DNA of 40,277 nt from Patescibacteria group bacterium (GTDB lineage Bacteria > Patescibacteriota > Minisyncoccia > UBA6257 > JAAZHW01): the NCBI GenBank assembly GCA_022711075.1, contig JAKLFS010000001.1, forward strand, positions 3,859 to 44,135, written 5' to 3'. A program made the position numbers and the translations under genes. The notes beneath the pieces were generated by a model. It was given only the letters and a program-made list of their open reading frames with translations. It searched no databases and was not told the origin of the DNA. Numbering within the stretch: the first letter of the stretch is position 1; each line of letters opens with the position of its first letter. Shown here piece by piece: positions 2,149 to 30,256 of the stretch.

Positions 2149-2760
2149 CTATTCCAAAATCCCGTCTAAATTCACATCGTAAAGAATAGCGTCAAAGGAA
2201 TTTTTATAATTGACGATCTCTTTAGGTTCAAACCACACTTTGATTTCATAATCAGCCTCTTCGATGTTGGCAGAGGCATGAATCAAATTTCGCACCGCCC
2301 TACCGGCATCTCCATAATCAGCCAAAGAATAAGAATCAATCGTATAATCTCCTCTGATGGTTCCGACGTCCGATTGCAAAGGTTCCGTAGAACCAACCAG
2401 CTTTCTCGTAATAGCGACGGCGTGATTTCCTTCTAAAACCATGGCAATAACCGGACCGGCGGATAAAAATGTTACCAGCCGATCAATAATCTTTTTCCCC
2501 AACAGTTTCGGCTCTTCTGTTACCTCAATGCCTGATTTTTTCTTTCCCTCAATGGAACGAAATCCTAAGGCCTCAATTTCCGCCTCATTTTTAACATAGT
2601 GCCGATAAGCCTGATCGGGAGTTGGCAATAAAAATTTCAGAGCCACCAATTTCAGTCCCACCCTTTCAAAACGACTCAAGATCTCTCCGGCCAAAGCCCT
2701 TTGAATACCGTCGGGCTTGATTAAAACCAGTGTTTTTTCTTCTTTAGGATTTTTGGTCAT
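2149..2760 (-). CDS. ndk: Nucleoside diphosphate kinase, long form (203 aa) with internal insertions
   Basis: LVLIKPDG...RFERVGLKLVALKF, GPVIAMVLEG, GTIRGDY, and the catalytic-His motif NLIHAS. Confidence 0.9.
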   Translation of the reverse strand: MTKNPKEEKTLVLIKPDGIQRALAGEILSRFERVGLKLVALKFLLPTPDQAYRHYVKNEAEIEALGFRSIEGKKKSGIEVTEEPKLLGKKIIDRLVTFLSAGPVIAMVLEGNHAVAITRKLVGSTEPLQSDVGTIRGDYTIDSYSLADYGDAGRAVRNLIHASANIEEADYEIKVWFEPKEIVNYKNSFDAILYDVNLDGILE

Positions 2761-4303: not shown

Positions 4304-4726
4304 TCAAATCTCCGTTAAGGAAATTAGGGAAACAACTGCTGTTTCGGGATTGATACTCACGACAGCCTGATATTTCTTTTGCCGCAAGAGAACCGTACCC
4401 ACACTGTTAATCGTCGCCTGATTATTGAGAAGGTCGTTGTTAATTGTCACGCTTACCTGCGTCCGCGTACCGGCTGTAAAAACATATTGCGTGCTATCCA
4501 AATCCTTATCTCTCACGAGCCGGAGAATGGCATCGTCTATTCCGGCTTTAGCGCCAAGCAAAGCTTCCTGCGCCAACCTGCTGCCATTACTTGATGAATT
4601 GGCCCAATAAGCCACAAAAGCAATGGCTATGCCCAATTCCATAATAATCAAGCCTATCATAATTACCAGCGGCAGCATAGTGATGCCCTTACTTTTTGTT
4701 TTTCTGACTAACATATGATTTTTCAT
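4304..4726 (-). CDS. PilX-like / pseudopilin-like small protein with an N-terminal hydrophobic helix (no Glu5)
   Basis: KSKGITMLPLVIMIGLIIMELGIAIAF, then AQEALLGAKAGIDDAI (PilX_N-like). The start overlaps the upstream stop (TAATG). Confidence 0.45.
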   Translation of the reverse strand: MKNHMLVRKTKSKGITMLPLVIMIGLIIMELGIAIAFVAYWANSSSNGSRLAQEALLGAKAGIDDAILRLVRDKDLDSTQYVFTAGTRTQVSVTINNDLLNNQATINSVGTVLLRQKKYQAVVSINPETAVVSLISLTEI

Positions 4727-7566
4727 TAAGGTGAGTAACCAATGATAACGCTATAAACATTGGGGCTATCGCTTAACCCGGCCGTCAGGTAAATACGGTA
4801 ACGGAAATAACGTCGCTGGTTATGATCAGCGAACCTTAAGGGTATTGCCTTGCCCGGATCGGCTGGACCATAATATCCGGTTTCCGTACCGTCGCTTCCC
4901 AAAAAAGGAGCGCCGCCTCCGGCTGAATTACCCCAGAGCAATCCACCGGCACAAGTAGGGTAATCGGTTGCTCCATTTGGGCAATTGGAAGAAGCGAAAG
5001 TAAAACGTACGTGTCCGCCATTCAATTGACCATTCCAAAGAATGGTATTGAAGATGGCGTTGCTGTTAACGTCAAAGGTGGACGATTCCAGATATCCGCT
5101 CGGAATAAAAATTTCCGTCGTTGTGCTGCTTTCATTAGTATAACTGGAAGAAATATTATCGTTAAAAGCATAGGCCCGATAACAATAGGTGGTGTTTTGC
5201 AGCAACGCCTCATCAGAATAACTGGTAACATTGGCAACAGTGGTATGTACCGGCAGGAATCCGGAGCAAGTCGTAGTGGCTCTTTCTATTTTAAAACCTG
5301 TTTCATTGTTGGAATTGTCAGTCCAAGTCAAATCAATTTGAGAGGAGCTGTTGGCGGTGGCCAAAAAATTGGACGGTGCGGGCAAGGTCGTGGTGGCAAA
5401 AACTTCAGAATAATTGGAATCGCCGTCGTTATTGTAAGGATAAACCCGATAATAATAAGTCGTACCGTCGGACAAACCGCTATCACTGTGGCTCGTAACA
5501 TTCGCGTCTTTGGTTGCCAATGAAGAATATGTTCCTCCGCTGCCTGTTTTTTTGTCTATCCTAAAACCGGTTTCATTGCCGGAATTATCATTCCAATGAA
5601 GGTCAATCTGCTCCGCCGAAATAATAGAGGCATTCAAGCCAGAAACGGCACAGGGCAAAGTTGGCTTAACCGAAACGACTGTCGCATAGCTGGAATCGGC
5701 ATCGGCCGTATAAGCCCGAACGCGATAGCAATAACTATCGTAACTGAGTCCGCTGCAAGTTAAAGTCGTGTCGGAATAAACAATGGCATTAGCGCCAGCC
5801 GTGCCAATCTGCGAAAAGCCGGCCGAACAACTGCCGATAGCCCTTTCTATTTTAAATCCCGCCTCGCCAATGGAATTGTCAACCCAGTTGATCACCAGAG
5901 AAGTCGGAGCAATTGTCTCAAAAGTTGTACCGCTGGGAGCCGACAAGCTGGTCGTAGCAGTAGCCAAAGCCGAACACGCTTCGCCGTCGTTATTATAGGC
6001 GCAAACGATGTAGCAATATTTTGTTCCTTCACCTAAATTAATATCGGAAGCGCTGATAACATTGGAACCTACACTTTGGACAAGAGGGCTGGAAACATCG
6101 CAAGCGGAACCAGCTGCGCGCCTGAGGTGAAAACCGGTCTCGCTGGAAGAATTATCAGTCCAAGAAAGATTTATCTGGGTAGAAGAAGTTGCCGAAGCAA
6201 CGGCTGCTAAACTGGACGGTGCCGCTGGCGGATTAGTGGTCGTACAACTGGCAGTACCGGAATATGAAGATTCAATAAAACTATTATAAGCTTTGGCCTT
6301 ATAACAATAGGTGGTGTTGGACGTCAAGCCGGTATCGGAATAACTCGTTGCCTCAGCTTCGGCATCAGCGAAATAAACAAAACCGGAACAGGTTGAAGTC
6401 GTTCGCTCTAATTTAAAACCCGTTTCGTTAATGGAATTATCCGACCAAAAAAGATTGATCTTATCCCCTCCCTGGGTAGAACAATTCAAGCTGGCAGGCG
6501 CAGGCAAAACCGTTATGGCCGATGCCGTGTTGGAATAATCGGAATGATTGCCTGAATAATAAGCCCTGATCCGATAACAATATCTTGTCCCGTCAGCCAA
6601 GCCACTGTCATTAAACGAAACGGCGCCGGCGCCAGCAGCAGAAATCAGGCTGAAGGCCGGAGAACCGGAACAATCGCTGTTAGAGGCTCTTTCAATTTCG
6701 AATCCTTCCTCGCCCAAAGAATTATCAGACCAAGAAAGGTTGATTTGAGATTGGGACACACCAGTGACAATTAAACCGTCAGGAGCGGTAAGGACCGTAG
6801 AACAACTATCTTCGGCGGTATAGCTGGAATAGGTGCCAGAATTATGATAAGCCCGAACCCGAAAGGAAACAGTCCGCCCCTGCTGCAGAGCGCCAGTGTC
6901 ATAAGTCACGGTATTAGCCGAAACAGTATCGTAAACGCCGTAGCTTCCACCACTGTATTTATATTCAATCTTATAACCGGTTTCCGCTGAAGAATGATCA
7001 GCCCAGTTAACCGTTGCCTTAGCATCATTGCCGGTTGTCCAGCAAGAAACATCCAAACCGGTTGGCGCGGTAAAAGCAGTGGTCGCACCCCAGGTTGAAG
7101 AAAAGGGACTGCAAACATCCGGACCGGCAGCGCACCAACCAGTAAAACCCGAACTCGTTCCGCAAAGTTGGCCACTACAGGAATAACAGCCGCTCTTACA
7201 GCCTTTCACTTCATAACTGTAATAAGTGCCCGGATTTAATCCGGAATGATCATAAGAAGTGCTCGTGGCGTTGATATTAAGCGCCGAACCCGAAACGCCA
7301 ACCAAATTATAATAATTAGTGGACGACACACTGCTCCAAGTCGGCCTCAGCATAGTTTCCGTTGCTCCTGTCAACCAGGTCAAATCTAAAGGAGTATCGG
7401 GCTCGGAACAAGCTGCCGAACAATCCGTGTCAAGATTGCAATCACATAAGGGCATCGCCTTGACCCTCTGAATCTGACCGAAAAATATCGGAACAATAAT
7501 CACGGCAAAGATAAAACCCGAGATAATGAAAGTTAAAATGTTTTTTTCTCTGAAAATTATCTTCAT
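4726..7566 (-). CDS. Large (946 aa) Cys-rich surface protein: N-terminal signal/anchor, one degenerate plus seven clear FN3 units, and a C-terminal 129-aa domain of unknown type
   Basis: Recurrent unit ...L(S/T/F/H)W.DNS..E.GF.IER....C.G......A..T.Y.D.GL...T.YCYR..AY.......S... about 93 aa long; N-terminal TM ILTFIISGFIFAVIIVPIFF. Confidence 0.85.
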   Translation of the reverse strand: MKIIFREKNILTFIISGFIFAVIIVPIFFGQIQRVKAMPLCDCNLDTDCSAACSEPDTPLDLTWLTGATETMLRPTWSSVSSTNYYNLVGVSGSALNINATSTSYDHSGLNPGTYYSYEVKGCKSGCYSCSGQLCGTSSGFTGWCAAGPDVCSPFSSTWGATTAFTAPTGLDVSCWTTGNDAKATVNWADHSSAETGYKIEYKYSGGSYGVYDTVSANTVTYDTGALQQGRTVSFRVRAYHNSGTYSSYTAEDSCSTVLTAPDGLIVTGVSQSQINLSWSDNSLGEEGFEIERASNSDCSGSPAFSLISAAGAGAVSFNDSGLADGTRYCYRIRAYYSGNHSDYSNTASAITVLPAPASLNCSTQGGDKINLFWSDNSINETGFKLERTTSTCSGFVYFADAEAEATSYSDTGLTSNTTYCYKAKAYNSFIESSYSGTASCTTTNPPAAPSSLAAVASATSSTQINLSWTDNSSSETGFHLRRAAGSACDVSSPLVQSVGSNVISASDINLGEGTKYCYIVCAYNNDGEACSALATATTSLSAPSGTTFETIAPTSLVINWVDNSIGEAGFKIERAIGSCSAGFSQIGTAGANAIVYSDTTLTCSGLSYDSYCYRVRAYTADADSSYATVVSVKPTLPCAVSGLNASIISAEQIDLHWNDNSGNETGFRIDKKTGSGGTYSSLATKDANVTSHSDSGLSDGTTYYYRVYPYNNDGDSNYSEVFATTTLPAPSNFLATANSSSQIDLTWTDNSNNETGFKIERATTTCSGFLPVHTTVANVTSYSDEALLQNTTYCYRAYAFNDNISSSYTNESSTTTEIFIPSGYLESSTFDVNSNAIFNTILWNGQLNGGHVRFTFASSNCPNGATDYPTCAGGLLWGNSAGGGAPFLGSDGTETGYYGPADPGKAIPLRFADHNQRRYFRYRIYLTAGLSDSPNVYSVIIGYSP
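5116..7074 (-). repeat. Seven tandem FN3-encoding units, period about 272-286 bp
   Basis: DNA landmarks of the GF.IER segment recur at about 5284, 5560, 5846, 6124, 6408, 6692 and 6964. Confidence 0.8.
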
Positions 7567-7583: not shown

Positions 7584-8237
7584 TTACATATCCACTTTAA
7601 TGGCGTTATTTTCAATAATAATGGGGGCGGAGGTGGCCGCATATGTGCCGCTGCTCACGGTATAGGGACCGGCACCGATATTACCGGATTGCCAATTGAA
7701 ATCTTTAAAATAAGCGGAAGTAGTCCGCATCAAATACTCGGAAATTGTAAAATTAGTATCAATGTTGGGCCAGGAAACAATCGCTGTTATTTTCTGCGCT
7801 GACGGATCTTCGCTAGTGCCGCTATAAGCAACGATCGCCCCTTCGCTGTTACGCGAAACATTTTCAATATTAAAATAATGGGTATAGATGATGCCGTCAA
7901 TGGTGGTCGTCGCCACCCCGCTTTGCATTTGCCAACTACCGTCAGAAAGAATGATTTGATAATTGACGGAAGCGCCTTTGCTTCCCGGACAAGAGCCTGA
8001 CGGCGGACAATAAATATTGAACCAATTGCTTTCGCCGATTGTTCTTACGGCTTCCAGGTCTTGCTGAGCCAAAGCCGTAGCCGTATTCGTCTGTTTCGTC
8101 TTTTCGCTGGCAATCAAGCTTGTGCCGATGGTTGAGGCCACGCCACCGATAACGACTCCGGCCATTACCACGGCGATTAAAATCTCTGCCAAAACCTGAC
8201 CGCCTTGATTAAGAAAAAAAGGGTTTTTAGTATGCAT
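7584..8237 (-). CDS. Minor type IV pilin-like protein (class III signal: ...NQGG|QVLAEILIAVVMAG, Glu5 present)
   Basis: Prepilin-like N-terminus. The ATG at 8237 is preferred; ATG 8264 and TTG 8279 are alternatives. Confidence 0.6.
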   Translation of the reverse strand: MHTKNPFFLNQGGQVLAEILIAVVMAGVVIGGVASTIGTSLIASEKTKQTNTATALAQQDLEAVRTIGESNWFNIYCPPSGSCPGSKGASVNYQIILSDGSWQMQSGVATTTIDGIIYTHYFNIENVSRNSEGAIVAYSGTSEDPSAQKITAIVSWPNIDTNFTISEYLMRTTSAYFKDFNWQSGNIGAGPYTVSSGTYAATSAPIIIENNAIKVDM

Positions 8238-8349
8238 TTTTGCGCCTCCCCAAAACTTCCTCATATGATTATTATACAAAAAAATAAGTCAATTCGCCAA
8301 TTAGCAGATCGGCCAAAAACGACGCCCCTAAGATTCGGGTTAATCACCC

Positions 8350-8847
8350 TTAATAATTTACTTGGCCAAGGGAATTGATAGAAATAGAGCGGGTTAAATC
8401 GGAATTAGCCACTGATTGCAAAATAATTGTCGTCGTGGCAACTGGCCGGCCGCTAATCCTTTGAAAAACAATGTCTTTGGTGCTGCTCGCTGCCGGATCA
8501 AGAAAACGCACCTGGTTAGATAAATAAACGGTTTCAACAGAAACGTCAACTCCATAAGAGCTGCCGCGAAAAAGCGCATAATATTCCTCGCCGCTGGCCG
8601 AATTCACAAAATGCACTCCCCAATCAGTCGGACCCTGACCGGAAACGGCTTCGCCGCTAATCGCCCTGTTTTGCGCTTGTCTTAAATAAGCTGTAATTTT
8701 TTCCGCCTCAGAAGTAATGTTGGCCGATTTGCGATAACCGCCCAAATAAGAGACGCCCACAACGCCTAAGACGGTTAAAATCGCCATAGAAAGAATAACT
8801 TCTATCAGGGTGAATCCCCAGCTTTTAGTGAATTTGGAATTTTTCAT
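8350..8847 (-). CDS. Minor pilin, GspH/FimT-like
   Basis: Canonical KSWG|FTLIEVILSMAIL prepilin motif. The ATG at 8847 is preferred over the TTG at 8886, which overlaps pilC. Confidence 0.75.
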   Translation of the reverse strand: MKNSKFTKSWGFTLIEVILSMAILTVLGVVGVSYLGGYRKSANITSEAEKITAYLRQAQNRAISGEAVSGQGPTDWGVHFVNSASGEEYYALFRGSSYGVDVSVETVYLSNQVRFLDPAASSTKDIVFQRISGRPVATTTIILQSVANSDLTRSISINSLGQVNY

Positions 8848-8860
8848 TTTGAGCCTGCCA

Positions 8861-10078
8861 TTATCCTCCTCCCATTTGACCGACAAATTGATACATCGGC
8901 ATAATTACCGCCAAAGCAATGCCGCCGACCACAACGCCAATAAACAAAAGCATCACCGGCTCAAAAACCGCCATCATTGACTTGATGGAATTGTCGATTT
9001 CCGTTTGGTAAAAGTCCGATAAACTGGACAAAACCTCTTCGGTGTGGCCGGCCTTCTCACCGATTGAAATCAAAGTGCGAATGGTCTGCGGAAAAATCTC
9101 CTCTTCCCGAAAAGCTTCTCCGAGGGTCATGCCACGAACGATCTTTTCCCGCGCAACGCGCAACAAAGCCTGCTTCATCTCTTCATTGCCGACCGTCGTA
9201 GCGGTAATTTCCAAATTTTCCAGAATCGGCAAACCGGACCGCATCAACGAACCGAAAGTATTCCCAAAACGCTGGTAAGCAATTTTTTTCAAGATATCGC
9301 TCACCAAAGGAATCTTGTAGATCAAACGGCTAAAAATAAGTCGGCCCGCCTTAGTCAAGCGGAAAAATATTATCAAGGCCACTATAATGACAGCTAAGGC
9401 GCCAAAAAGCCATAAGCCATTGGCCTGAAAAAAGAAAGAAACATTAAAAATAAACTTAGTCACAACCGGAATTTTCATATCGCTCTCCATAAACATGGAA
9501 GCCATTCTCGGAATAACAAAAGTAACCAGCATGATTAAAATCGCTAAGGAAGCGGAAATCAATAAGGCGGGGTAAGTTAAGGCTGAACGCACGCGCGAAT
9601 TCAATTCCCTTTCGGCCCCCAAAGAAGTGCTCAAATTGGCGAAAACCTGCTCCAGATTGCCCGAGGCCTCACCCGCCTTAATCAAATTGATGAAAACCGG
9701 AGAAAAAATCCTTGGATAGTTGGCGAAAGTGGTATAAAACGGCTTGCCGGCTTCCAAATTTTTTCTGATTTCCATTAGCAGGGCCCGAACCGCCGGTTTT
9801 TTGAAATCGGCGATTAAAATGTCAATGGCCTTAAAAATATCAGTGCCGACTTTAAGCATCAAAGACAAGTATTTAGTCAAAAAAAGCTTGTCCACGGTGG
9901 AAATCGGCGAACCTAAAACCCCCTTCAATTTTGATTTGGAAGTTTTGATGGCGCTCAATTTGATCGGGGTTAAACCCTGATTTTTTAAAAAATCCAGAAC
10001 CGCGGCGGAATCTTGAAAATCTCCGTCACCCTCAACTGTTTTTCCCTCTTTGTTGTAAGCCGTATAATGAAATAGCAT
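8861..10078 (-). CDS. pilC: Type IV pilus platform protein PilC (GspF family), copy 1
   Basis: 405 aa. The N-terminus MLFHYTAYNKEGKTVEG, a duplicated GspF-type domain and three TM segments are typical of PilC/GspF. Confidence 0.9.
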   Translation of the reverse strand: MLFHYTAYNKEGKTVEGDGDFQDSAAVLDFLKNQGLTPIKLSAIKTSKSKLKGVLGSPISTVDKLFLTKYLSLMLKVGTDIFKAIDILIADFKKPAVRALLMEIRKNLEAGKPFYTTFANYPRIFSPVFINLIKAGEASGNLEQVFANLSTSLGAERELNSRVRSALTYPALLISASLAILIMLVTFVIPRMASMFMESDMKIPVVTKFIFNVSFFFQANGLWLFGALAVIIVALIIFFRLTKAGRLIFSRLIYKIPLVSDILKKIAYQRFGNTFGSLMRSGLPILENLEITATTVGNEEMKQALLRVAREKIVRGMTLGEAFREEEIFPQTIRTLISIGEKAGHTEEVLSSLSDFYQTEIDNSIKSMMAVFEPVMLLFIGVVVGGIALAVIMPMYQFVGQMGGG

Positions 10079-10114
10079 AGGGATATTCTTTATTATATTT
10101 TATAACATTATTTA

Positions 10115-11353
10115 CTATTGAGAAAGTAGATATTGGCGTTGAAGCTCCGACGCCGAAAGCGCCCGGTTATAGAGAAGCAGCTGGTCAATTTTTTCACCCG
10201 GGATAGAATCAACGCAAGTTGGAAGATAAATACCCACTCCCATCCAAGAAATTGTTCCGTAATTCCCTCCGGCCGTTAGAGACTTTTGCCCCGACACACT
10301 GGAATCCACATAGAGCTTGGCCAGTAAATTCGGCTTGTCAAAAACGAAAGAAAGCTGATGCCAAGTATTAAGAGAAGGAAGTGATGAATAATTAAAATCA
10401 TTGTTATCACCAGCTACCGTCCTTAAAGAAACGCCCGTACGCATATTCCAAATACTACACATACCGCAACCGGAAACATTCACTGCGGCCAAATGAACTC
10501 GGGACGTACCACTAGAAACAGTGACATAATTCCACCAGGAAAGAGTAAAACGCGAACTAGGCAAATTAGAAATGACTGTTGGCAAGGTAGCAGTGTATAC
10601 TCCGGCATTTTGATTAGTGCAACCAGCGGAAATACTACTATCCATCTCCACTGCCTTACCAATTTTACCATCAACCCAATTAACTAAATTTCTGACTTCC
10701 AGATTGGTTCCGTTGCCGCTGGTGTCAGAAGCAACGCTGCCGCTTCCCTCGTCAAAAGACCAAGAACCGACCGGCTTCAAAGAACTGGCATAAAGATTGG
10801 ACCCAATTTCATATAAATACGGATCTGGGCCCCCATCAATTTTTGATTGAGGATCAGTACCGTTCAAACCGTAATATTTTGATTCAAACCAAGCGGTTAA
10901 AGTATAGGTGCCAGAAGAATCGCAACTATACGTATAAAAAAGGTTGTCGCTCAAAGAGTTTTTCGGGTCAAGGGGCAAATGCGAAAAAAGGGACGCGGTC
11001 GCCAAAGAATCAAAGTTAATCGGAATCCAACCAGTACCATCAGTTTTCGTAACCGCCTCAGTTGCCGCTTGAACCCAACTGACGCCGCTGGGCAAATTAT
11101 CATTGGAAAGAGCGCTACCGGCAGGAAGGGAGGCGTAAATTTTTGTTCCGTCGCAAACACCCAAACTCAATCCGGAAGAATGCGCCATTTGCAAGGCCAA
11201 ATAAATGGAATTTAAATCTGCAATTCTTTGACCATCGCGGCTTTTTCTAAGAGACTCGGCCGGATTGATTGCCACGAGCGTAATAGTGGTAAGAACGCCT
11301 ATGATTACCAGAACCACAAACAGTTCCATTAAAGTAAAGCCCTGCTGTTTCAT
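10115..11353 (-). CDS. Modular type IV pilin: pilin module (paralog of 13684..14334) fused to a C-terminal LamG/concanavalin-A-like lectin-type module
   Basis: MKQQG|FTLMELFVVLVIIG. The pilin core shares motifs with the 216-aa pilin. The C-terminal region WSFDEGSGSVASDTSGNG...W.DGKIGKA...LLLYNRALSASEL carries a LamG_3-type signature. Confidence 0.8.
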   Translation of the reverse strand: MKQQGFTLMELFVVLVIIGVLTTITLVAINPAESLRKSRDGQRIADLNSIYLALQMAHSSGLSLGVCDGTKIYASLPAGSALSNDNLPSGVSWVQAATEAVTKTDGTGWIPINFDSLATASLFSHLPLDPKNSLSDNLFYTYSCDSSGTYTLTAWFESKYYGLNGTDPQSKIDGGPDPYLYEIGSNLYASSLKPVGSWSFDEGSGSVASDTSGNGTNLEVRNLVNWVDGKIGKAVEMDSSISAGCTNQNAGVYTATLPTVISNLPSSRFTLSWWNYVTVSSGTSRVHLAAVNVSGCGMCSIWNMRTGVSLRTVAGDNNDFNYSSLPSLNTWHQLSFVFDKPNLLAKLYVDSSVSGQKSLTAGGNYGTISWMGVGIYLPTCVDSIPGEKIDQLLLYNRALSASELQRQYLLSQ

Positions 11354-11355
11354 AA

Positions 11356-13068
11356 TTATTCCCGGATTACCCTTAACACCTCTTCCAACGTAGTCAGACC
11401 CAACTCAGCTTTTCTGAGCCCATCTTCAAACATGGAAATCATTCCTTTCTGCCTGGCCAAAGCTCTTAATTTATCCAAAGTAAAATCAGGCTGATTGACC
11501 AAACGCCGCATATCCTCGTCAAAATCCAAAACTTCATAAATGGCCAACTGACCGCGATAACCGGTAAACCCACAAGTCGCGCAACCGACCCCTTTATAAA
11601 GAGTTCGCGGTAAAACGGGATTTTCCAAACCGGTAAATTCTTTTAGTTGCCTTTCCAAGGCCTTAGCCACTTCCGGCGTCACTTCCTGAGACTGAATGCA
11701 ATCGCGGCAAAGGCGGCGCAACAATCTTTGCGCCACGACGGTATTTAAAACCGCCGAAACCAAAAAAGCCGGAATTTTCATGTCAATCAATCGCGGAATG
11801 GCTGTCGGGGCGTCATTGGTATGCAAAGACGAAAGCACAAGGTGGCCGGTTAAAGCCGAGTGCACGGAAATTTCCGCCGTTTCTTCATCGCGGATTTCAC
11901 CGACCATAATGATATTGGGGTCTTGACGCAAAATCGCCCGCAGCCCGGTGGCGAAAGTGATTCCCGCCTGAGGATTAATCTGCGTCTGATTAACATACCG
12001 AATATCGTATTCAATCGGGTCTTCAGTCGTGACGATGTTGACATCCGGACGATTAAGCATGTTGATGATGGAATAAAGCGTCGTGGTTTTACCCGAACCG
12101 GTCGGACCGGTAACCAAAAGCATGCCATAAGTTTTTTTAATGCTTTCTTCTATAATATGCGCCGTATCCGGCAGCATCCCCAATTCAGCTAAACTCATCG
12201 GTTTAGCCGTTGCCCGCAACAAACGCATTTCCACTTTTTCACCGTAAAAAGTCGGCATTAAGGAAACACGGATATCCATCGCCTCGCCCAAGGCCTCATA
12301 ACGAAAACGTCCATCTTGCGGTTTGCGATGCTCATCAATTTTTAAACTGGCCAAAAGCTTAATGCGCGCCACAATCGCCGGCTGAATTTCTTTGGCAATC
12401 CTGATAATTTCGTGCAGAACGCCGTCAATGCGAAAACGGATTAAAAGCGTGTCTTGCAAAATTTCAATGTGGATATCCGAAGAATTCAAAGAAATGGCGT
12501 AAGCCAATATGGTATCGACCATATTGATTACCGGCAACTCATTGGCAATCTCCTGTTCGCCCACCATTTTCAATCGGCTGGAAGCAATCACACTCTCCTC
12601 AATGGCCTTCTGGAAATCTTCAACGATTTCCTTTCCGTAAAGGGAAAAAACGTAATTGAGATCCTTGGGCGTGGTTAAATATATTTTCACCGCCGAACCG
12701 GTGTATTTTTCCACAAAACCGATGGTTTCCAAATCGCTCGGATCTTCCATGGCCAAAGAAATACGGCCGGCCTCATCTTTATCAAAAACCGCCACCCGTT
12801 TAGTCCGGGCCACTTCTTCGGGAATTAAACTCAGAATAGCCTTCTTAATCGGCCGACCGCGTAATTTGACGAGCGGCGTTTTAAAAAAATCCGTATAAAG
12901 TTGGTAAAGATAATCTTCGGAAATAAAGCCGCGGGAAATAAAAATAGCCGCTGCATCTTGCCCGGTTCTTTTTGCTTCTTCCAAAACGGCATTGAAATCA
13001 TTTTCGGAAACCAAATGGCTCCCGACTAACAATTCTTTTAATTTTTCCAGCGGCAAATGCACGGCCAT
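11356..13068 (-). CDS. pilB: Type IV pilus assembly ATPase PilB (GspE family), copy 1
   Basis: Walker A GPTGSGKTTT, Asp/His boxes, the tetracysteine CRDC...CATC, and a GspE_N-like N-terminus. Confidence 0.92.
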   Translation of the reverse strand: MAVHLPLEKLKELLVGSHLVSENDFNAVLEEAKRTGQDAAAIFISRGFISEDYLYQLYTDFFKTPLVKLRGRPIKKAILSLIPEEVARTKRVAVFDKDEAGRISLAMEDPSDLETIGFVEKYTGSAVKIYLTTPKDLNYVFSLYGKEIVEDFQKAIEESVIASSRLKMVGEQEIANELPVINMVDTILAYAISLNSSDIHIEILQDTLLIRFRIDGVLHEIIRIAKEIQPAIVARIKLLASLKIDEHRKPQDGRFRYEALGEAMDIRVSLMPTFYGEKVEMRLLRATAKPMSLAELGMLPDTAHIIEESIKKTYGMLLVTGPTGSGKTTTLYSIINMLNRPDVNIVTTEDPIEYDIRYVNQTQINPQAGITFATGLRAILRQDPNIIMVGEIRDEETAEISVHSALTGHLVLSSLHTNDAPTAIPRLIDMKIPAFLVSAVLNTVVAQRLLRRLCRDCIQSQEVTPEVAKALERQLKEFTGLENPVLPRTLYKGVGCATCGFTGYRGQLAIYEVLDFDEDMRRLVNQPDFTLDKLRALARQKGMISMFEDGLRKAELGLTTLEEVLRVIRE

Positions 13069-13080
13069 GCGAATATTTGT

Positions 13081-13680
13081 TTAAAACTTTAACGAATTTA
13101 TTATGGGCCAACTCAATATCGTCTGGCCAAAAACAAGAATCAGAAAAGCGGCAATCGGCCACAAATAACGCAGAGAAAAAAGTTCACCGAATTTCCATTT
13201 TTTAAAAATAAGACCCAGCAGATAAAAAACAATGGCGCAAAGTAAAATCGCGAAAACGTAGAACAGCCACAAAGGATGACCCACTACTATTATACCATAA
13301 AAAATCAAACCCGGCTCATCTTCATGAAATAACCGGTTTTGGAAGCGACGATTAATGATTTTGGCAACGAAATAAAATAATAAAGCGATGAAAAGACTGA
13401 AGGCAAAAGGCCAAACGAACCGGTAGCCGACGTAACCGATAAAATAGCTTAAAGGAGTATGCGGCGGCAAAAGCCCTTGGGAAAGAGGATTATGACTCCA
13501 AACATAATATTGACCGAACACCAACAAACCGACTTTAACTGTCTGGAGTATTAAAACAACAATAACAGCGGGCCTTAGCAAATTCTTGGACTTAAACAAT
13601 CCGAGAATCAGGCCCGCTGTTATTAATAAATACGCAAACGGTAACAGTTGGACAAACCAATCAATCGCAATCATGCTCAA
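13081..13680 (-). CDS. Polytopic (about 5-6 TM) membrane protein of unknown function embedded between the pilin and pilB
   Basis: ORF with five or more long hydrophobic segments, 3-nt and 12-nt gaps to its neighbours, and no motif I recognise (no GxGD prepilin-peptidase motif). Confidence 0.6.
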   Translation of the reverse strand: MSMIAIDWFVQLLPFAYLLITAGLILGLFKSKNLLRPAVIVVLILQTVKVGLLVFGQYYVWSHNPLSQGLLPPHTPLSYFIGYVGYRFVWPFAFSLFIALLFYFVAKIINRRFQNRLFHEDEPGLIFYGIIVVGHPLWLFYVFAILLCAIVFYLLGLIFKKWKFGELFSLRYLWPIAAFLILVFGQTILSWPIINSLKF

Positions 13681-13683
13681 TCC

Positions 13684-14334
13684 TTAGGGGAAAGTATAAA
13701 ATCCAGTGGATGAAGTGCCAACCAAATTCAAGCCCGGCGCATTGCCCACTTCATAAAGCGAAGTACAATTGCCGCCATCTTTAGAAACAACATCGCCCTC
13801 ACCACTGAGCTTGTAATAGACACTTTCCATCTGAGCATCAATCTCGTAAGTGGTGCTCGTAGCATTACAAGCATAAGTGTAGTACAAATTGCTGGTTTGC
13901 GTGGTAGAAGTGGCGTTAGTCGGATCTATGGGCAAAGCTGAAAGCGGAGAACCGGAAGAAATGCTGTCAAAGTTCACTGGAATCCAGCCAGTACCATTAG
14001 TCAAACGGGGATTGGTCGCGGCAACTTGCGTGGTTCGAGTATAGCCATCTCCTCCCACCTGGCTAGTCGCAGTCATGCCGCCAATACCAACAGAATAATA
14101 AATCTTAAGTGGGCAGTCACTAGCCGGCGTAATTGCCATAGACGGATTAGCCCTGTCCGTTAAATACAGGTTCATGGCTGTCCGCAAAGCACCCAAATCC
14201 GAGACCCTTTTGGTATCACGGGTTTTTCTTAAAATTTCTCCCGGGTTGATGGTCACGATAACGATGCTCATTAAAAGCGCCAAAATGGCAATCACAACAA
14301 GCAATTCCACTAATGTAAATCCTTTTTTCTTCAT
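13684..14334 (-). CDS. Type IV pilin, candidate major pilin of locus 1
   Basis: MKKKG|FTLVELLVVIAILALL with Glu5; Ser/Thr-rich C-terminal half; first structural gene after the regulator. Confidence 0.85.
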   Translation of the reverse strand: MKKKGFTLVELLVVIAILALLMSIVIVTINPGEILRKTRDTKRVSDLGALRTAMNLYLTDRANPSMAITPASDCPLKIYYSVGIGGMTATSQVGGDGYTRTTQVAATNPRLTNGTGWIPVNFDSISSGSPLSALPIDPTNATSTTQTSNLYYTYACNATSTTYEIDAQMESVYYKLSGEGDVVSKDGGNCTSLYEVGNAPGLNLVGTSSTGFYTFP

Positions 14335-15073: not shown

Positions 15074-16594
<1,521 letters not shown>

Positions 16595-16615
16595 AAAAAA
16601 TAAACTTGAATGATC

Positions 16616-17579: not shown

Positions 17580-19155
17580 TGTTTTAATAATCCTTGATGG
17601 CTGGGGCATAGGGCCGCACGATGACACTAACCCGATTTATCGCAGCCAAAAGCCGACCATTGATTATTTCCAAAAAAATTATCCGATGATGAGCCTGCAA
17701 GCCGCTGGCATTGCCGTAGGTTTGCCTTGGGGCGAGCCGGGAAACAGCGAAGTCGGACACCTGACCCTGGGCGCCGGAAGGGTCATCTACCAGCACTATC
17801 CCCGCATTAGTTTGGCCGTTCGCAACGGCGAATTCTTCAAAAACACGGCTTTCAACGAAGCCTTTGATTATGAAAAGAAAACTAATGGCAGCATCCATAT
17901 CTTGGGACTGCTTTCCAGCGGCAATGTCCATTCGTCTTATGAACATCTGCAGGCCTTAATTAAAATGGCTTCTTTAAAGAGGGCAAAAAATGTTTATTTC
18001 CATCTTTTCACTGATGGCCGCGATTCGGGGCCGCAATCCGGACGCGACTTAACGAAAAAATTCCTGGAAGATTTAAAAAAAGCCGGGGTCGGACAATTGG
18101 CCAGCTTGAGCGGACGCTACTATGCTTTGGATCGCACAAAAAACTGGCAGAACACAAAACAAATTTACGACCTGCTCACCCAGGGAAAAGCTAAAATTGA
18201 ACCAAACATTGATAAAATCTTCGATCTCTATTACGGCCGCAAACTTTCCGACTCCTACATTGAACCGACGCTCATCGCCGATCCGCAAAAGCCCGAAGAA
18301 TTTCCGCTCGTCAAAGACGGTGATAGCTTAATCTTTTTCGATTTCCGCGAAGACAGCATCCGCCAAATGGTGGCGCCGTTTGCCCTCAAAGATTTTCCGG
18401 AATTTGAACGGCTCCCCTTTCCCAACCTGAAAATCACTACCATGACCGAATATGACACAAACTTTGACGTCAGCGTCGCCTTCAAGCCGCAAAAAATAGA
18501 AAAAACGCTAACCACGGTTCTTAATGAAAGAGAATTAAAACAATTGAAAATAGCGGAAACAGAAAAATATTACCATCTGACCTTTTTCTTCAACGGCTTA
18601 ACTGATAAAATTTTCTCTAATGAATTCCGCATCATGCTTCCCTCCAAAGAAACTCCCCGCCCCGACGAAGCGCCGGAAATGCGCGCTTTGGAGATAACCG
18701 ACAGATTGATTCTGGCGCTCCAGGAAAAAACCTATGATTTTATCGCCATCAATTATGCCAACCCCGATACCATGGCCCACACCGGAAACTATCAAGCCAC
18801 CGTCAAAGCAATTGAAATAATTGACGACCAGTTAAAACAAGTTTACAAAGTGGCCAAAGAAACCGGCGCCACCCTGGTCATTACCTCGGATCACGGCAAT
18901 GCCGAAAAATTGTATGATACGGCCACCGGCGAAATAGAAACCAACCACAACGGTAATCCCGTTCCGTTTTATCTGATTGACGAAAAATTCAAATTGGCAA
19001 AAGAAAGAAACGAGGAAGAAATTTACGCCTTGGAACGGACGACCGATGGAGTAATCTGTGACGTCGCGCCGACCATTTTAGAATTAATGAACATCCCCAT
19101 TCCCGAAGAAATGTCCGGAAAAAGTCTCATCAAATATCTGAACTTGGAAAAATAA
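17566..19155 (+). CDS. gpmI: 2,3-bisphosphoglycerate-independent phosphoglycerate mutase
   Basis: LIILDGWG..., NSEVGHLTLGAGR, FTDGRD, and TSDHGNAE motifs; 529 aa. Confidence 0.92.
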   Translation: MKKTNVLIILDGWGIGPHDDTNPIYRSQKPTIDYFQKNYPMMSLQAAGIAVGLPWGEPGNSEVGHLTLGAGRVIYQHYPRISLAVRNGEFFKNTAFNEAFDYEKKTNGSIHILGLLSSGNVHSSYEHLQALIKMASLKRAKNVYFHLFTDGRDSGPQSGRDLTKKFLEDLKKAGVGQLASLSGRYYALDRTKNWQNTKQIYDLLTQGKAKIEPNIDKIFDLYYGRKLSDSYIEPTLIADPQKPEEFPLVKDGDSLIFFDFREDSIRQMVAPFALKDFPEFERLPFPNLKITTMTEYDTNFDVSVAFKPQKIEKTLTTVLNERELKQLKIAETEKYYHLTFFFNGLTDKIFSNEFRIMLPSKETPRPDEAPEMRALEITDRLILALQEKTYDFIAINYANPDTMAHTGNYQATVKAIEIIDDQLKQVYKVAKETGATLVITSDHGNAEKLYDTATGEIETNHNGNPVPFYLIDEKFKLAKERNEEEIYALERTTDGVICDVAPTILELMNIPIPEEMSGKSLIKYLNLEK

Positions 19156-22959: not shown

Positions 22960-23874
22960 TTAAACGTTAAATAAAGAAAAATAAAAGTTCGTTAGTGTTT
23001 GACCGAAAAAGAAAACGGCCAAAACGCCCAGAGCTAAAAAGGGGCCAAAGGGAACGGCATCCTTCAATTTCTTTTTCGTCGCAAGAACAATGATTAGAGA
23101 AACGAAGGCGCCAATTATAAAAGAAAGACCCAAACCGATTAAACCGGCGCCAAGACCAAGCATTAAACCGATTAAAATCGCCAGCTTAACGTCGCCGAAA
23201 CCCATTGCCTTGCCGCGGCTAAAAGCATAAATTAAAAAAAGGATGATGGACAAAATAAATGCTCCTGCCAAAGCTGAGGTTAAAACGTTAAAATGAATGT
23301 TGACCACGTCAGCATAGGGACCCAAAAAATTCAAGCCGTGCACGGGAAATAAACTGCCTCGCGTTAGGCTCAAAAAATAAAAACTCAAATTGGCCAGCAG
23401 AGAAATAGCGATGGCCGGAAAAACTATTTTATCAGGCAAAAGATAATGACGCAGATCAATTATTGATAAGGCGATGAGAACGGCTGCGTAAAAAAGCCAA
23501 ATAAGAATGACTGCGACTACCCAAAAATTTGTCCGCGGATCGGAAAAAAAATAATGAGCGAAAAAATTAAAATCAAGAATGCGCCAGGTTACGCCCGCAA
23601 AGATTAAAGCCGTCAGCCCCTCCACCAGCGGATACTGCCAAATAAGCTTCTTGCGACAATAACGACAGCGACCACGCAAAAAAATAAAGCTTAGGATTGG
23701 AATAAGCTCAAACCATTTCAACTGTTGGCCGCAACGCAAACAGTGGGAACGACCCCTGACGATTTTTATAACCTGAGTATCTTCCGCGGGGTTCCAGCGC
23801 AAAGTAAGGACATTGATAAAGCTGCCCACCACCAAGCCCAGAAGCCCCGCAAAGATAATAAGAAGATAAGACAT
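22960..23874 (-). CDS. pilD: Prepilin peptidase / N-methyltransferase (A24 family)
   Basis: GSFINVL, CLRCGQQL...CRYCRKKL and GFGDVKL motifs; multi-TM. Confidence 0.9.
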   Translation of the reverse strand: MSYLLIIFAGLLGLVVGSFINVLTLRWNPAEDTQVIKIVRGRSHCLRCGQQLKWFELIPILSFIFLRGRCRYCRKKLIWQYPLVEGLTALIFAGVTWRILDFNFFAHYFFSDPRTNFWVVAVILIWLFYAAVLIALSIIDLRHYLLPDKIVFPAIAISLLANLSFYFLSLTRGSLFPVHGLNFLGPYADVVNIHFNVLTSALAGAFILSIILFLIYAFSRGKAMGFGDVKLAILIGLMLGLGAGLIGLGLSFIIGAFVSLIIVLATKKKLKDAVPFGPFLALGVLAVFFFGQTLTNFYFSLFNV

Positions 23875-23897
23875 GCGATTTTTACGCTAAATTGCTT

Positions 23898-24377
23898 TTA
23901 GAATTGAACGCAATAAACGCCGTCAGCTCCGCAGTCGATTCCAAAATCGCAAGAGCCGGAACTGGTTCCCTGAGCGCTATCTTTAAGCGCCTGATTGCCC
24001 GTATCTTCCAAGGTCGCTGCCACGACATAATTCTGGCCGAGGTTGCAATCTTGATAATAGTAAGAAATTCCGTTATCGTCAGTCGCCAAAGGATCCTGAG
24101 GCACCTGATTCAAGCCGATCCCCGCTCCGGTAATTGAGGCCGTCAAAGCCGTCCATTTTTGGCTGGCGCTGCCAGCGGGCGCAGTGGGATAAGAAGAATT
24201 ACGAGTATAATAAATCTCCAAAGCGTTTTGCACCTGTTTCAGATCGGAAACCCTTCTGGCATCCCTGCCCCTTGAACGAAATTGGCTAAGACCAACTAAA
24301 ATCAAAGAAGATAAAATTCCGATAATAGCCACAACTATCAACATTTCGATTAAAGTAAAACCCTTTTGTTTTTTCAT
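23898..24377 (-). CDS. pilA: Type IV pilin, candidate major pilin of locus 2
   Basis: MKKQKG|FTLIEMLIVVAIIGIL with Glu5; C-terminal cysteines. Confidence 0.85.
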   Translation of the reverse strand: MKKQKGFTLIEMLIVVAIIGILSSLILVGLSQFRSRGRDARRVSDLKQVQNALEIYYTRNSSYPTAPAGSASQKWTALTASITGAGIGLNQVPQDPLATDDNGISYYYQDCNLGQNYVVAATLEDTGNQALKDSAQGTSSGSCDFGIDCGADGVYCVQF

Positions 24378-24459
24378 AATTAATATGTATTAAACGACCT
24401 TTTTATTCTGCAAATAAGATCCGGGAAATAATTTGCCCTTCGTCTTATTCAAAAATTAA

Positions 24460-25671
24460 CTAAAAGACCGAGGCCAAGTTATAAATTGGCAAAAGTACGG
24501 CCCCGACGAACAAGCCAATGAATAATCCCAGAACAACGATAATAGCCGGCTGAACCATTTCCACCAAATTGTTAATGGAATTCTGGACCTCCTCATTGTA
24601 GAAAGAGGAAACTTTATCCAGCAAAGTGTCTAACTGCCCGGAAGTTTCGCCGATCGCCACCATTTGCGTCACGAGCGGCGGGAAATATTCGGGATAACGA
24701 CTGAGGCTGGCGGAAATCGTTCCGCCCCGTCTGATTTCCTCGGCCGTCTCATTCAAAACTCTGCGATACACTTGATTACTGACTACGCGCGCGGAAATTT
24801 CCAAGGAATCGGTCACCGATATTCCACCCTTCAAAAGCACGCTGGTCGAGGTCGCAAAACGGGTAATGGCCGTCTTCTTAATCAAGGTGCCGAACAGGGG
24901 AATGCCCACTGTTAATTCATCCCAAACCGGCTTTCCTTCGTCGCTTCTGAAATAACGAACAGCGACAACAACGGCCACAACTAAAACGATTAAAAGCGCC
25001 CAGCCCCAAGAAGACATAAAAGTACCAAGCCCCATCAAAACTCTGGTCAGAAATGGCAATTGCACATTCACTTCGGAAAAAATAGAACGCATCTGCGGCA
25101 TTACCACCGTTAAGATTAAAATCATCACCGCAATAAAAATTCCTATGACGAAAACCGGATAAATCATCGCGCTTTTAACACGACTGGATAAGCGCATTTC
25201 TTTTTCCAGATAATCAGCCATAAAGAGCAGGGTTTCTTCCAAGCGACCGGAAACTTCAGCGGAACGCACCATGTTCACGTAAAAATCGGAAAAGACTTTA
25301 GGATGCTTGGAAAGCGCTTGGGAAAAGTACAATCCCCCGTCAACATCGGTATAGACATCGAAAATCACGTCTTTCAGCGCCGGCGTGGAAATCTGTTTGT
25401 GCAAAGTTTTCAAAGAATCGGATAAGGCCACTTTGGCCGAAAGCAAAGTGCTTAATTGTCTGGTAAAAAGCATCAGCTCCTTTGGTTTGACTTTCTGGAA
25501 AAGACCGGAAAATTTGCCCCAAACATTCTTTTTCTCTAATGATTCCAGCGACAAAAGGTAAAGCTTGTTCTCCTGCAAAATTTTGATAGCCAAATCCCGG
25601 CTGGCGGCCTCCACCATGCCGGCTTGCGTTTCACCTAATTCATTTCTTGCGCTGTAACGGAATTTTGCCAT
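24460..25671 (-). CDS. pilC: Type IV pilus platform protein PilC (GspF family), copy 2
   Basis: MAKFRYSARNELGETQAG, duplicated GspF domains and three TM segments. Confidence 0.9.
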   Translation of the reverse strand: MAKFRYSARNELGETQAGMVEAASRDLAIKILQENKLYLLSLESLEKKNVWGKFSGLFQKVKPKELMLFTRQLSTLLSAKVALSDSLKTLHKQISTPALKDVIFDVYTDVDGGLYFSQALSKHPKVFSDFYVNMVRSAEVSGRLEETLLFMADYLEKEMRLSSRVKSAMIYPVFVIGIFIAVMILILTVVMPQMRSIFSEVNVQLPFLTRVLMGLGTFMSSWGWALLIVLVVAVVVAVRYFRSDEGKPVWDELTVGIPLFGTLIKKTAITRFATSTSVLLKGGISVTDSLEISARVVSNQVYRRVLNETAEEIRRGGTISASLSRYPEYFPPLVTQMVAIGETSGQLDTLLDKVSSFYNEEVQNSINNLVEMVQPAIIVVLGLFIGLFVGAVLLPIYNLASVF

Positions 25672-25677
25672 AGTTAT

Positions 25678-26754
25678 TTATCTCGCCAGCAAACTGCCCA
25701 ATTCCGCCGGATTCAACGAATACATTTGGGCACTTTCCAAAGAAATTTCTCCTTGGCGCACTAAGGCGGCCAGCGAACGATTTAAAGAAATCATTTTTTC
25801 TTGGATTCCGGTCTCAATCACCAGATCAATCTGATAAATTTTGTCCTCGCGAATCAGATTGCGAATAGCAGAATTGGTAATCATCACCTCGCAGGCAGGA
25901 ATGCGGCCGCCGGAAAGCCGCGGGATTAACCGCTGAGAAACAATGCCAACTAAAGTGGAGGCAATTTGAGATTTGATCTGGTTCTGCTGACCAGCCGGAA
26001 AACTGTCAATGATCCGATCCAAAGTTTGAGAAGCGGAATTAGTATGCAAAGTGGAAAACACCAAGTGACCGGTTTCGGCAGCCGTAATCGCTGTTTGAAT
26101 TGTTTCCGCATCGCGCATCTCGCCGATCATGATGACATCAGGATCCTGTCTTAAAACCGAACGTAAAGCCCGATGAAAACTCGGAGTATCGCTGGCCACT
26201 TCTCTTTGATCAATAATGCAACGGTCTTGATTAAAAACGTATTCAATCGGGTCTTCAATAGTAATAATATGGCTAGTCCGCTTATGATTTATCTCATCAA
26301 CCATGGCTGCCAAGCTCGTTGATTTTCCATGGCCAGCCGGACCAACCACAATCACAAACCCCTGCGACGGCTTAGTAAAATCATGGAGCACTGGCGGCAT
26401 ATTCAATTCTTCCAATGTTTTAATTCTAAAAGATATGAGACGCAAAGCGGCGGCCATATTCCCTCTCTGGAAATAAACGTTGACGCGAAAACGAGCTTTA
26501 TCGGTATAAGAATAAGAAAAATCCAATTCGCGATCTTTTAGAAATTGTTCCCGTCGCTGCTCCGGCACCAAAGCATAAACCATCCCCTCCACTACTTCTT
26601 TGGTAAAAACGTCTTCTTTGACTAAAGTCGTCAAACGTCCGTCGATTCTTAGAGTCGGCCGGCGGCCAACGGCAAAATGCAAATCCGAGGCATTTTCTTT
26701 AGCGGCCAAGGCCAATAATCCGTCTAACTTTTCTTTATAAAATGTGTTGTCCAT
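25678..26754 (-). CDS. pilT: Twitching-motility retraction ATPase PilT
   Basis: 358 aa; ASDLHF..., Walker A GPAGHGKST, and short PilT-type architecture without a GspE N-domain. Confidence 0.92.
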   Translation of the reverse strand: MDNTFYKEKLDGLLALAAKENASDLHFAVGRRPTLRIDGRLTTLVKEDVFTKEVVEGMVYALVPEQRREQFLKDRELDFSYSYTDKARFRVNVYFQRGNMAAALRLISFRIKTLEELNMPPVLHDFTKPSQGFVIVVGPAGHGKSTSLAAMVDEINHKRTSHIITIEDPIEYVFNQDRCIIDQREVASDTPSFHRALRSVLRQDPDVIMIGEMRDAETIQTAITAAETGHLVFSTLHTNSASQTLDRIIDSFPAGQQNQIKSQIASTLVGIVSQRLIPRLSGGRIPACEVMITNSAIRNLIREDKIYQIDLVIETGIQEKMISLNRSLAALVRQGEISLESAQMYSLNPAELGSLLAR

Positions 26755-26797
26755 AGTCTGTTATGATAATATTTTTTATTCGTCTAATTTTATTTAA

Positions 26798-28552: not shown

Positions 28553-28643
28553 AAAAAATTATTTTAATTTATAAGCCGGGCGCCGCTCCGCCGAACCGAA
28601 CCCTATTTCTAAATTTGGCGCGCCTCCTGTTCCAGCGAAATCT

Positions 28644-28982
28644 TTAAAACGGAATGAACGGATTGGGTCGACCCAAACTTCCGATATCAACGGGGTCGGC
28701 ATAGGAATGAAGGGATTGATAAATTGAATTTTCCAGGACTGTTGCCGGATCAAACTTTAGATTGATGATTCCGCCGGTTACGTCTTTTTGCAAGTCAGCC
28801 TGCAACAAAGAAAGATCGCTGCTTTGACCGAAAATCAAACCAACGATCTTGCTCAAAATCCCGCCCGAAGAAGCGCTCGGCGCAAAAAACACAAAATAAA
28901 TGACAATAATGGCCACAATCAAAACACCGATAAATATGTAGAGCCATGTTCTTTTCTTTGGTTTTTCTTCAAGTGTTTCCAT
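28644..28982 (-). CDS. Small membrane-anchored protein, possibly PilP-like (C-terminal GRPNPFIPF)
   Basis: One TM (WLYIFIGVLIVAIIVIYFVFF), a position after pilO, and a C-terminal R-x-NPF motif reminiscent of the RDPF motif in PilP-type proteins. Confidence 0.4.
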   Translation of the reverse strand: METLEEKPKKRTWLYIFIGVLIVAIIVIYFVFFAPSASSGGILSKIVGLIFGQSSDLSLLQADLQKDVTGGIINLKFDPATVLENSIYQSLHSYADPVDIGSLGRPNPFIPF

Positions 28983-28993
28983 GATATTTTTAC

Positions 28994-29575: not shown

Positions 29576-29593
29576 AGTGGACCCGATCGGAGA

Positions 29594-30142: not shown

Positions 30143-30172
30143 AAGAACTTAATTTTTATGGCTTATATCTAT

Positions 30173-30214
30173 ATTATACACTTTTTTAATAGGCAACCCA
30201 AGGAGTTATCCACA
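30173..30214 (-). promoter_or_regulatory. Internal promoter between pilM and pilN (TTGGGT-17-TATAAT) with a perfect DnaA-box 9-mer (30206-30214) 4 nt upstream of the -35
   Basis: -10 at 30173-30178 and -35 at 30196-30201 (minus-strand sense); TTATCCACA on the plus strand at 30206-30214. Confidence 0.45.
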
Positions 30215-30256
30215 TTAGAGCGCCGATTTTCAAGGCCAAGCAGATTTCATCTTTAT

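Follow-up and report, generated by a model that had tools for sequence, protein, structure and literature searches.

How do bacteria of the candidate phyla radiation (CPR) recognize and attach to their hosts? The question is open, and almost no Paceibacterota have been cultured. It is raised here by one gene in a stretch of 40,277 nucleotides from a Patescibacteria group bacterium (contig JAKLFS010000001.1, positions 3,859 to 44,135; hereafter the window), in which a protein of 412 amino acids (aa) joins a type IV pilin-like part to a LamG domain. An earlier interpretation of the DNA made without database searches (the sequence-only reading) had placed the protein in an episymbiotic CPR cell and proposed it as a candidate for host recognition. 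The 90%-identity clusters to which the window proteins belong are named Candidatus Paceibacterota bacterium, in agreement with the CPR assignment. Metagenomes from anaerobic digesters, landfill, activated sludge, and groundwater contain near-identical DNA. We consider it likely that the gene encodes a modular minor type IV pilin whose LamG head is displayed on the pilus and binds a polymer on the surface of a partner cell.

The gene is an open reading frame (ORF) with an ATG start at 10115..11353 on the minus strand, and the ORF, Pfam matches, motifs, and structural model all describe a bimodular type IV pilin, a pilin stem followed by a LamG head. The leader peptide MKQQG (aa 1-5; 11339..11353, minus strand, as are all parts of the gene) ends at a predicted prepilin-peptidase cut after Gly5. 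Together with the adjoining FTLMELFVVLVIIGVLTTITLVAI it forms a canonical class III signal, with a 5-aa leader, Gly at -1, Phe at +1, Glu at +5, and a hydrophobic alpha-1N segment. N_methyl (PF07963) matches aa 1-25 at 23.6 bits against a Pfam cut-off of 21.2, TIGR02532 scores 25.1 bits against an NCBIfam cut-off of 16.3, and the N-terminus of the family profile matches those of PilA, geopilin, and GspG in a search of PDB sequences. Behind the leader lies the alpha-1 helix (aa 6-59; 11177..11338), known from profile matches and from model helices at 8-29 and 31-59, with the mature Phe1 and Glu5 followed by a hydrophobic N-terminal half. It is followed by the globular pilin beta-sheet domain (aa 60-195; 10769..11176), which contains the motifs GTGWIPINFDS, LPLDPKN, LFYTYSC, and DGGPDPYLYEIG, and by a LamG/concanavalin A (ConA)-like beta-sandwich head of a four-cysteine subtype (aa 196-412; 10118..10768).

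An AlphaFold model built on 68 homologues (mean predicted local distance difference test score [pLDDT] of 90.5, predicted template modelling score [pTM] of 0.88) has four parts: an alpha-1 helix at 8-59, a pilin beta-sheet at 71-184, a beta-sandwich at 196-395, and a short C-terminal helix. The pLDDT is mostly above 90 over helices 8-59 and strands 71-184, and the head begins about 10 residues past the last strand of the stem. Sequence and model together thus support a pilin stem joined directly to a LamG/ConA-like head. The protein has the marks of a type IV pilin (the signal, a predicted alpha-1 packed on an antiparallel beta-sheet, and a cognate peptidase and assembly machinery), and it is a modular pilin in the sense of Raynaud et al. 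2021.

The stem has a close counterpart in the window. Aligned with the 216-aa pilin encoded at 13684..14334 (minus strand; BLASTP, Pfam), aa 1-199 are 39% identical (E 5e-41), far beyond chance, which bears out the proposal that the first ~195 aa are paralogous to that protein. The shared motifs that had been quoted all lie in both proteins: GFTL(M/V)EL at aa 5 in each and, with positions given for the 412-aa protein and then the 216-aa pilin, GTGWIP(I/V)NFDS at 106 and 114, LP(L/I)DP.N at 126 and 134, L(F/Y)YTY(S/A)C at 138 and 150, and DGG...LYE(I/V)G at 173 and 186. The two genes are also identical at 30 of 35 nucleotides between 13967-14001 and 11010-11044, as had been reported; this identity reflects protein conservation, because both stretches encode the conserved segment TDGTGWIP.NFD. 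At 11010-11047, which encodes GTGWIP.NFD, many unrelated high-depth contigs of a landfill metagenome match the window, at a depth of 92-176 compared with ~5 around it; in DNA, too, this stem motif is conserved among many pilin genes that occur together.

Less of the claim that the pilin had been "duplicated and fused" survives. The paralogy of the stem stands, but a recent local event does not: the fusion is an old family of at least 276 clusters, whose stems are ~60% identical to each other as against 39% to the local 216-aa pilin.

The C-terminal half was said to be of Laminin_G_3 type, and this was borne out on two counts. Laminin_G_3 (PF13385) matches aa 256-404 at 44.2 bits (E 2.9e-11, cut-off 27.6), and the motifs WSFDEGSGSVASDTSGNG (aa 198), WVDGKIGKA (aa 226), and LLLYNRALSASEL (aa 392) are found in the 412-aa protein only, with no counterpart in the 216-aa pilin. 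The modeled head has the two-sheet jelly-roll of the ConA-like superfamily, with Foldseek E values of about 1e-11. Foldseek matches in the PDB (E 6e-12 to 1e-9) are confined to this half and comprise the HC-N jelly-roll of tetanus and botulinum toxins, the binding domain of PMP1 Hc, the lectin-like domain of trypanosome trans-sialidase, and the C-terminal domain of arabinanase AbnA. A search of PDB sequences with the family profile recovered the same set and added an S-layer-domain protein (4qvs, 4.6e-25), the CBM40 modules of sialidases, and pentraxins. HC-N, PMP1 Hc, the AbnA C-terminal domain, and CBM40 share the fold of the head and resemble its profile (E 1e-10 to 1e-25), but they are only 12-20% identical to it, too distant for a transfer of binding-site residues, and none is attached to a pilin. 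By analogy, these receptor- and carbohydrate-binding domains support a binding role. An enzymatic head like that of GH16 was rejected: aa 196-412 contain no ExDxxE glucanase motif and match no glycoside hydrolase in Pfam, so the head is a non-catalytic, binding-type LamG/ConA-like domain. Its four cysteines (C244, C296, C299, and C380) lie inside conserved motifs and could form disulfides or a metal site.

The gene sits within a pilus operon. Its ATG lies 2 nucleotides past the stop codon of a gene for a PilB-type assembly ATPase (T2SSE and MshEN in Pfam; 11356..13068, minus strand), and a PilC-type platform protein (T2SSF; 8861..10078, minus strand) is encoded immediately downstream. This order of pilB, pilin-LamG, and pilC is kept in relatives at 92% and 78% identity. 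The expected leader-processing enzyme, a prepilin peptidase PilD (A24_N_bact and Peptidase_A24 in Pfam; 22960..23874, minus strand), is encoded 12 kb away. The conserved position between pilB and pilC and the presence of PilD in the window support a role in a pilus. The two points on which the sequence-only reading said it could fail, a missing LamG match or fold and an N-terminus other than that of a prepilin, were both looked at: the match and fold are there, and the N-terminus, with its class III signal, a PilD in the window, and flanking pilB and pilC, is that of a prepilin. Its interpretation as a whole is supported.

We picture the following course of events. PilD would remove MKQQG and probably methylate Phe1, after which the hydrophobic alpha-1 with Glu5 would let the 412-aa protein enter a growing filament like any pilin. 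Its share in the filament would be low, with copies at the tip or scattered along the shaft, and the pilus would thus display the LamG head. The head would then bind a polymer, in all likelihood a glycan, that covers the cell to which this host-dependent Paceibacterota bacterium attaches.

Several points weigh against this picture. Leader processing, methylation, and incorporation into a filament are predicted steps. LamG domains also bind proteins and lipids, and carbohydrate binding by this head is putative. In many relatives the gene is an orphan, remote from pilus operons. Unlike the hypervariable generic heads, the four-cysteine head keeps 45-59% identity between domains of life, a degree of conservation that fits a conserved ligand better than a strain-specific host receptor. 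Finally, the division into subunits draws on one activated-sludge metatranscriptome. There, a contig with the response regulator and 216-aa pilin genes reaches a word depth of 110.9, as against 0.2-9 for the fusion gene and 2-4 for pilB and pilC, but contig depth reflects expression roughly and poorly, and the RNA library may contain contaminating DNA. Read with that caution, the difference in depth fits a major 216-aa subunit and a minor fusion subunit, and suggests that the 216-aa protein is the major pilin and the pilin-LamG fusion a minor one.

Among the alternatives, the one that fares best keeps the LamG head on the pilus but gives it a purpose other than that of a lectin: a protein or other non-carbohydrate ligand, or the docking of a pilus or tip component. 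The best structural matches, clostridial neurotoxin HC-N, whose role in ligand binding is unclear, and the pentraxins, would suit such a head, and four conserved cysteines together with the 45-59% conservation between bacteria and archaea suggest a conserved partner. However, CBM40 of sialidases, the AbnA C-terminal domain, and the trans-sialidase lectin domain bind carbohydrate, as does the characterized pilin precedent, PilC of Streptococcus sanguinis. We regard a non-lectin head as unlikely, though worth keeping in view.

A less probable alternative is that the class III signal serves export and anchoring only, and that the product is an unpolymerized surface binding protein used, for example, in substrate capture, on the lines of a short pseudopilus or of the archaeal bindosome. 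CPR bacteria depend on scavenging, and many homologues are orphan genes beside metabolic genes (transketolase and PfkB) rather than pilus genes, as such a protein might be. Against this, nothing is missing from the globular pilin domain of the stem, which also has Glu5 and shares 39% identity with the pilin of the operon, and the gene lies between pilB and pilC both here and in close relatives. Moreover, an export tag needs no strong conservation of the stem, yet in one pair of relatives (L022 and L023) the stem DNA is 92% identical, compared with 81% in the flanking transketolase gene. That the 412-aa protein is instead the major subunit of a thick, LamG-decorated filament, as its full-size stem with Glu5 and the two pilus machineries in the window might allow, is very improbable, given a metatranscriptome contig depth 10 to 100 times higher over the 216-aa pilin and the promoter-proximal place of that pilin after the response regulator.

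A minor pilin with a LamG head belongs to a known, catalogued, and experimentally uncharacterized class. In the InterPro survey of Raynaud et al. 2021, IPR012902-PF13385 is the commonest modular-pilin architecture, with 229 proteins, and several representatives of the 15 commonest architectures are CPR, the first being Candidatus Magasanikbacteria (PMC8179133, Dataset S1, Fig. 8). The catalogued architecture, a prepilin methylation motif plus one Laminin_G_3, is identical to that of the 412-aa protein; the catalogue is a census of architectures, and takes in neither the family of the stem nor the place of the gene in an operon, and neither subtypes or exchange of heads nor counterparts in archaea (PMC8179133). 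The fusion is therefore less novel than had been implied, because its architecture was already the most common catalogued modular pilin.

The survey of distribution that had been called for uncovered a large family, and the head type of the 412-aa protein is found also on pilins of DPANN archaea. Scoring 8000 candidates from a word-indexed database gave 428 matches at E<=1e-5. Most of the 120 matches listed are 390-440 aa long and carry both Pfam domains, and some of those from Minisyncoccia, Paceibacterota, Wolfebacteria, and Liptonbacteria are annotated as "LamG-like jellyroll fold domain-containing protein." An exhaustive search of 1.84 billion cluster representatives yielded 11343 proteins with E<=1e-3; 2369 of them reach E<=1e-10, and at least 276 clusters at 50% identity reach E<=1e-30. 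Most of the best 150 match over their full length. Hundreds of full-length relatives occur in Paceibacterota, and a scan with a 14-sequence alignment returned only distant species representatives, at no more than 42% identity. One locus (L007) has two pilin-LamG genes (10001-11251 and 17701-18801) within 8 kb, near a GH18 gene and one for a Peptidase_S74 protein, so a single Paceibacterota genome can carry several such pilins.

Characterized pilins provide partial parallels, which support the proposed role. Lectin-bearing modular pilins of S. sanguinis had been named as a precedent, and its PilC is a modular minor pilin whose ConA-like lectin module binds sialylated glycans (Shahin et al. 2023, PMC9934059). 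The likeness lies in a minor type IV pilin that displays a ConA-like lectin module on the pilus, but in S. sanguinis PilC the pilin moiety is unusually short, an Ig-like module precedes a galectin-like lectin, and PilA is needed for stability (PMC9934059), whereas the 412-aa protein has a full-size stem, a direct junction, and no Ig-like module. We rejected orthology with S. sanguinis PilC, given the differing module order and its absence from the 60 best PDB sequence-profile matches and the 50 best Foldseek matches. Nearer in lifestyle are PilX1 and PilX2 of Saccharibacteria TM7x, minor pilins of a CPR episymbiont whose lectin-like C-terminal domains have been linked to sugar-inhibitable host binding, PilX1 resembling L-type (ConA-like) lectins (PMC11623550). 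They have been proposed to bind host cell-wall glycans on the indirect basis of sugar inhibition and mutants (PMC11623550); they come from another CPR class and are likened to the 412-aa protein by description. Paceibacteria of methanogenic reactors, in turn, attach to specific methanogens and carry pilin-rich clusters (PMC9763046).

For the head itself, and for variation among heads, two further comparisons are relevant. A Laminin_G_3 module is said, in work by Sakka from 2019, to act as a carbohydrate-binding module. The PilV adhesin, a minor pilin on the type IV thin pili of IncI plasmids, joins a constant N-terminal part to alternative C-terminal segments that set partner specificity; switching by the R64 shufflon takes place within one cell, through site-specific inversion by the Rci recombinase. 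The pilin-LamG family resembles PilV in its constant N-terminal and alternative C-terminal parts, but its variation lies between strains and paralogues.

That variation appears when homologues are split at the junction of stem and head and the two parts are compared separately. Two homologues, P0004 and P0011, have stems that are 98-99% identical and heads that are ~30% identical, although their genes occupy one locus, between transketolase and PfkB, in genomes that are 96% identical in DNA on both sides. Between them, ~510 nucleotides of the LamG core have no nucleotide similarity (L002 3406-3923 compared with L004 7525-8027), with breakpoints just past an N-terminal head motif (W-x-F/L-DEGxG...D-x-SGN) and just before a C-terminal one (LYNR-x-LS). 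The core is likewise replaced wholesale at this locus in L022 (5775-6170) compared with L023. Stems and heads are strongly decoupled: 41 homologue pairs have stems of 90% identity or more, and in 35 of these the heads are at most 50% identical. There are also sets in which one stem is common to five and to seven different heads. The database was clustered at 90% identity, which removed uniformly similar pairs; the heads at 30-50% are nonetheless not an artefact, because such clustering cannot produce values this low. Further members of the shared-stem sets sit at the same transketolase/PfkB locus, and among related strains stems of 95-100% identity carry heads of 30-50% identity, swapped at that one locus. 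Another pair, with stems 99.5% identical, occupies two different loci in one sample, and its members are therefore probably paralogues.

The swapping is seen in relatives, not in the window. Judged from these alignments, the stem behaves as a constant adaptor and the head as an exchangeable specificity module in the wider family, and replacement of heads on stems that are 95-100% identical points to selection on binding specificity. In-cell diversification of the shufflon type or by a diversity-generating retroelement (DGR) was considered and rejected: there are no silent cassettes or inverted repeats in the window, tblastn detected no LamG-coding sequence there beyond the gene itself, and a repeat search and Pfam annotation of the larger ORFs found no recombinase, reverse transcriptase, or pair of template and variable repeats. 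Within a digester metagenome, the head code alone assembles as two variants, at 10244-10466 (17/223 differences) and 10616-10742 (6/127), and the regions beside it as single contigs. Diversifying selection was rejected as an explanation of these assembly bubbles, since 10 of the 13 listed differences are synonymous and the amino acid changes are those of the allele at 92% identity; the bubbles are two coexisting strains.

Two observations concern the surroundings of swapped or duplicated genes. On either side of two paralogous pilin-LamG genes of one sample lie short repeats of 60-220 nucleotides that are 69-90% identical and occur in both orientations (L020 930-1370 and 5040-5200; L021 1160-1290, 5725-5945, and 7233-7350); they may be small mobile or recombination-promoting elements. 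At a transketolase/PfkB locus, a gene for a 93-aa GIY-YIG domain protein (L023 819-1100) lies immediately upstream of the pilin-LamG gene.

The head of the window protein belongs to a subtype marked by the motifs CxNQxAG, GCGxCS, and CVDSIPG, which are common to 13 of 121 sequences. It is also found on bacterial stems that are only 33-41% identical to that of the window protein, and on archaeal pilins. P0016 (L024 5271-6338) is an archaeal-type pilin that starts with MKAISTVIATIMLL and ends in a four-cysteine LamG head, on a contig with the archaeal ribosomal proteins L32e, L19e, and L18e and with TFIIS. P0040 (L025 1-935), annotated as Candidatus Aenigmarchaeota, adjoins an archaeal pilin and T2SSF and T2SSE genes; it is frameshifted and truncated where the contig begins, and across the frameshift an archaeal-type stem can be read upstream. 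P0167 matches the archaeal Pilin_N family above its cut-off, and P0044, P0140, P0146, and P0152 have archaeal-type N-termini. The head in the window is 58.6% identical to that of P0016 and 50% identical to that of P0040; most bacterial four-cysteine heads fall at 49-55%. A neighbor-joining tree without support values sets the four-cysteine heads, as one group, apart from the generic heads, and interleaves their archaeal and bacterial members.

These relationships are suggestive of a movement of pilus head modules between DPANN archaea and CPR bacteria. In G+C content the heads equal their surroundings, so any transfers are not recent. We tentatively propose, rating it at slightly under an even chance, that the four-cysteine head is a portable pilus-tip module, carried on at least three unrelated Paceibacterota stems and several archaeal stems, and that, as the wholesale replacement of generic LamG heads on stems of 95-100% identity also suggests, ultra-small episymbionts of both domains share and exchange heads, perhaps because the host surfaces they target are of one kind.

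The rest of the operon includes further surface components. The cluster runs in the order response regulator, 216-aa pilin, 199-aa membrane protein, PilB, pilin-LamG, PilC, GspH-like pilin, 231-aa pilin-like protein, 946-aa FN3-repeat protein, 140-aa protein, PilM-like protein, and NDK. The GspH-like minor pilin (8350..8886, minus strand) scores below the Pfam and NCBIfam cut-offs and has an N-terminal pilin motif, and the 231-aa pilin-like protein (7584..8279, minus strand; NQGG followed by QVLAEILIAV) is recognized from its sequence, with no Pfam or NCBIfam match. The cysteine-rich 946-aa protein (4726-7566, minus strand) has an N-terminal membrane anchor, ~6-7 FN3 repeats, and an unassigned C-terminal domain, and a 47-nucleotide motif recurs in its gene every ~280 nucleotides (repeat family D2). 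It is conserved in the 92%-identity relative (L019); in the 78%-identity relative (L001) a single 354-aa protein replaces the pair of 946-aa and 231-aa genes. We regard it as a second candidate for a variable surface or adhesion component. The 199-aa polytopic membrane protein between the major pilin and pilB (13081-13680, minus strand) has no Pfam or NCBIfam match, and its position is kept in L001 (197 aa). The operon is closed by an NDK with an N-terminal extension (203 aa; 2149-2760, minus strand), in a position kept in both L001 and L019; in L021, too, the pilin-LamG gene has an NDK gene nearby. Directly upstream of the operon is a complete 16S rRNA gene (15074-16597, minus strand). No 23S rRNA, 5S rRNA, or tRNA gene was found in the 40-kb window, and the rRNA genes therefore appear to be unlinked.

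A second type IV pilus cluster, at 22960-31300, encodes PilD, a 159-aa pilin with weak ComP_DUS and T2SSG matches, PilC, PilT, PilB, a 112-aa protein, PilO, PilN, and PilM. The retraction ATPase PilT occurs in this cluster only. As the two clusters are separate, the genome has two pilus machineries, which resemble the thin and thick pili reported for Saccharibacteria TM7x.

By itself the gene adds little, given that pilin-LamG fusions are already the commonest catalogued modular pilins; head swapping and the cross-domain subtype make the family of more interest than this one gene. The pilin-LamG gene is a concrete, expressible candidate adhesin, and its head (aa 196-412) is compact, confidently modeled, and usable as a probe for hosts or ligands. 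If stems are constant and heads exchangeable, host-range shifts in uncultured episymbionts would have a genomic marker, and a head subtype shared with archaeal pilins, if true, would point to an exchange of adhesins between CPR bacteria and DPANN archaea.

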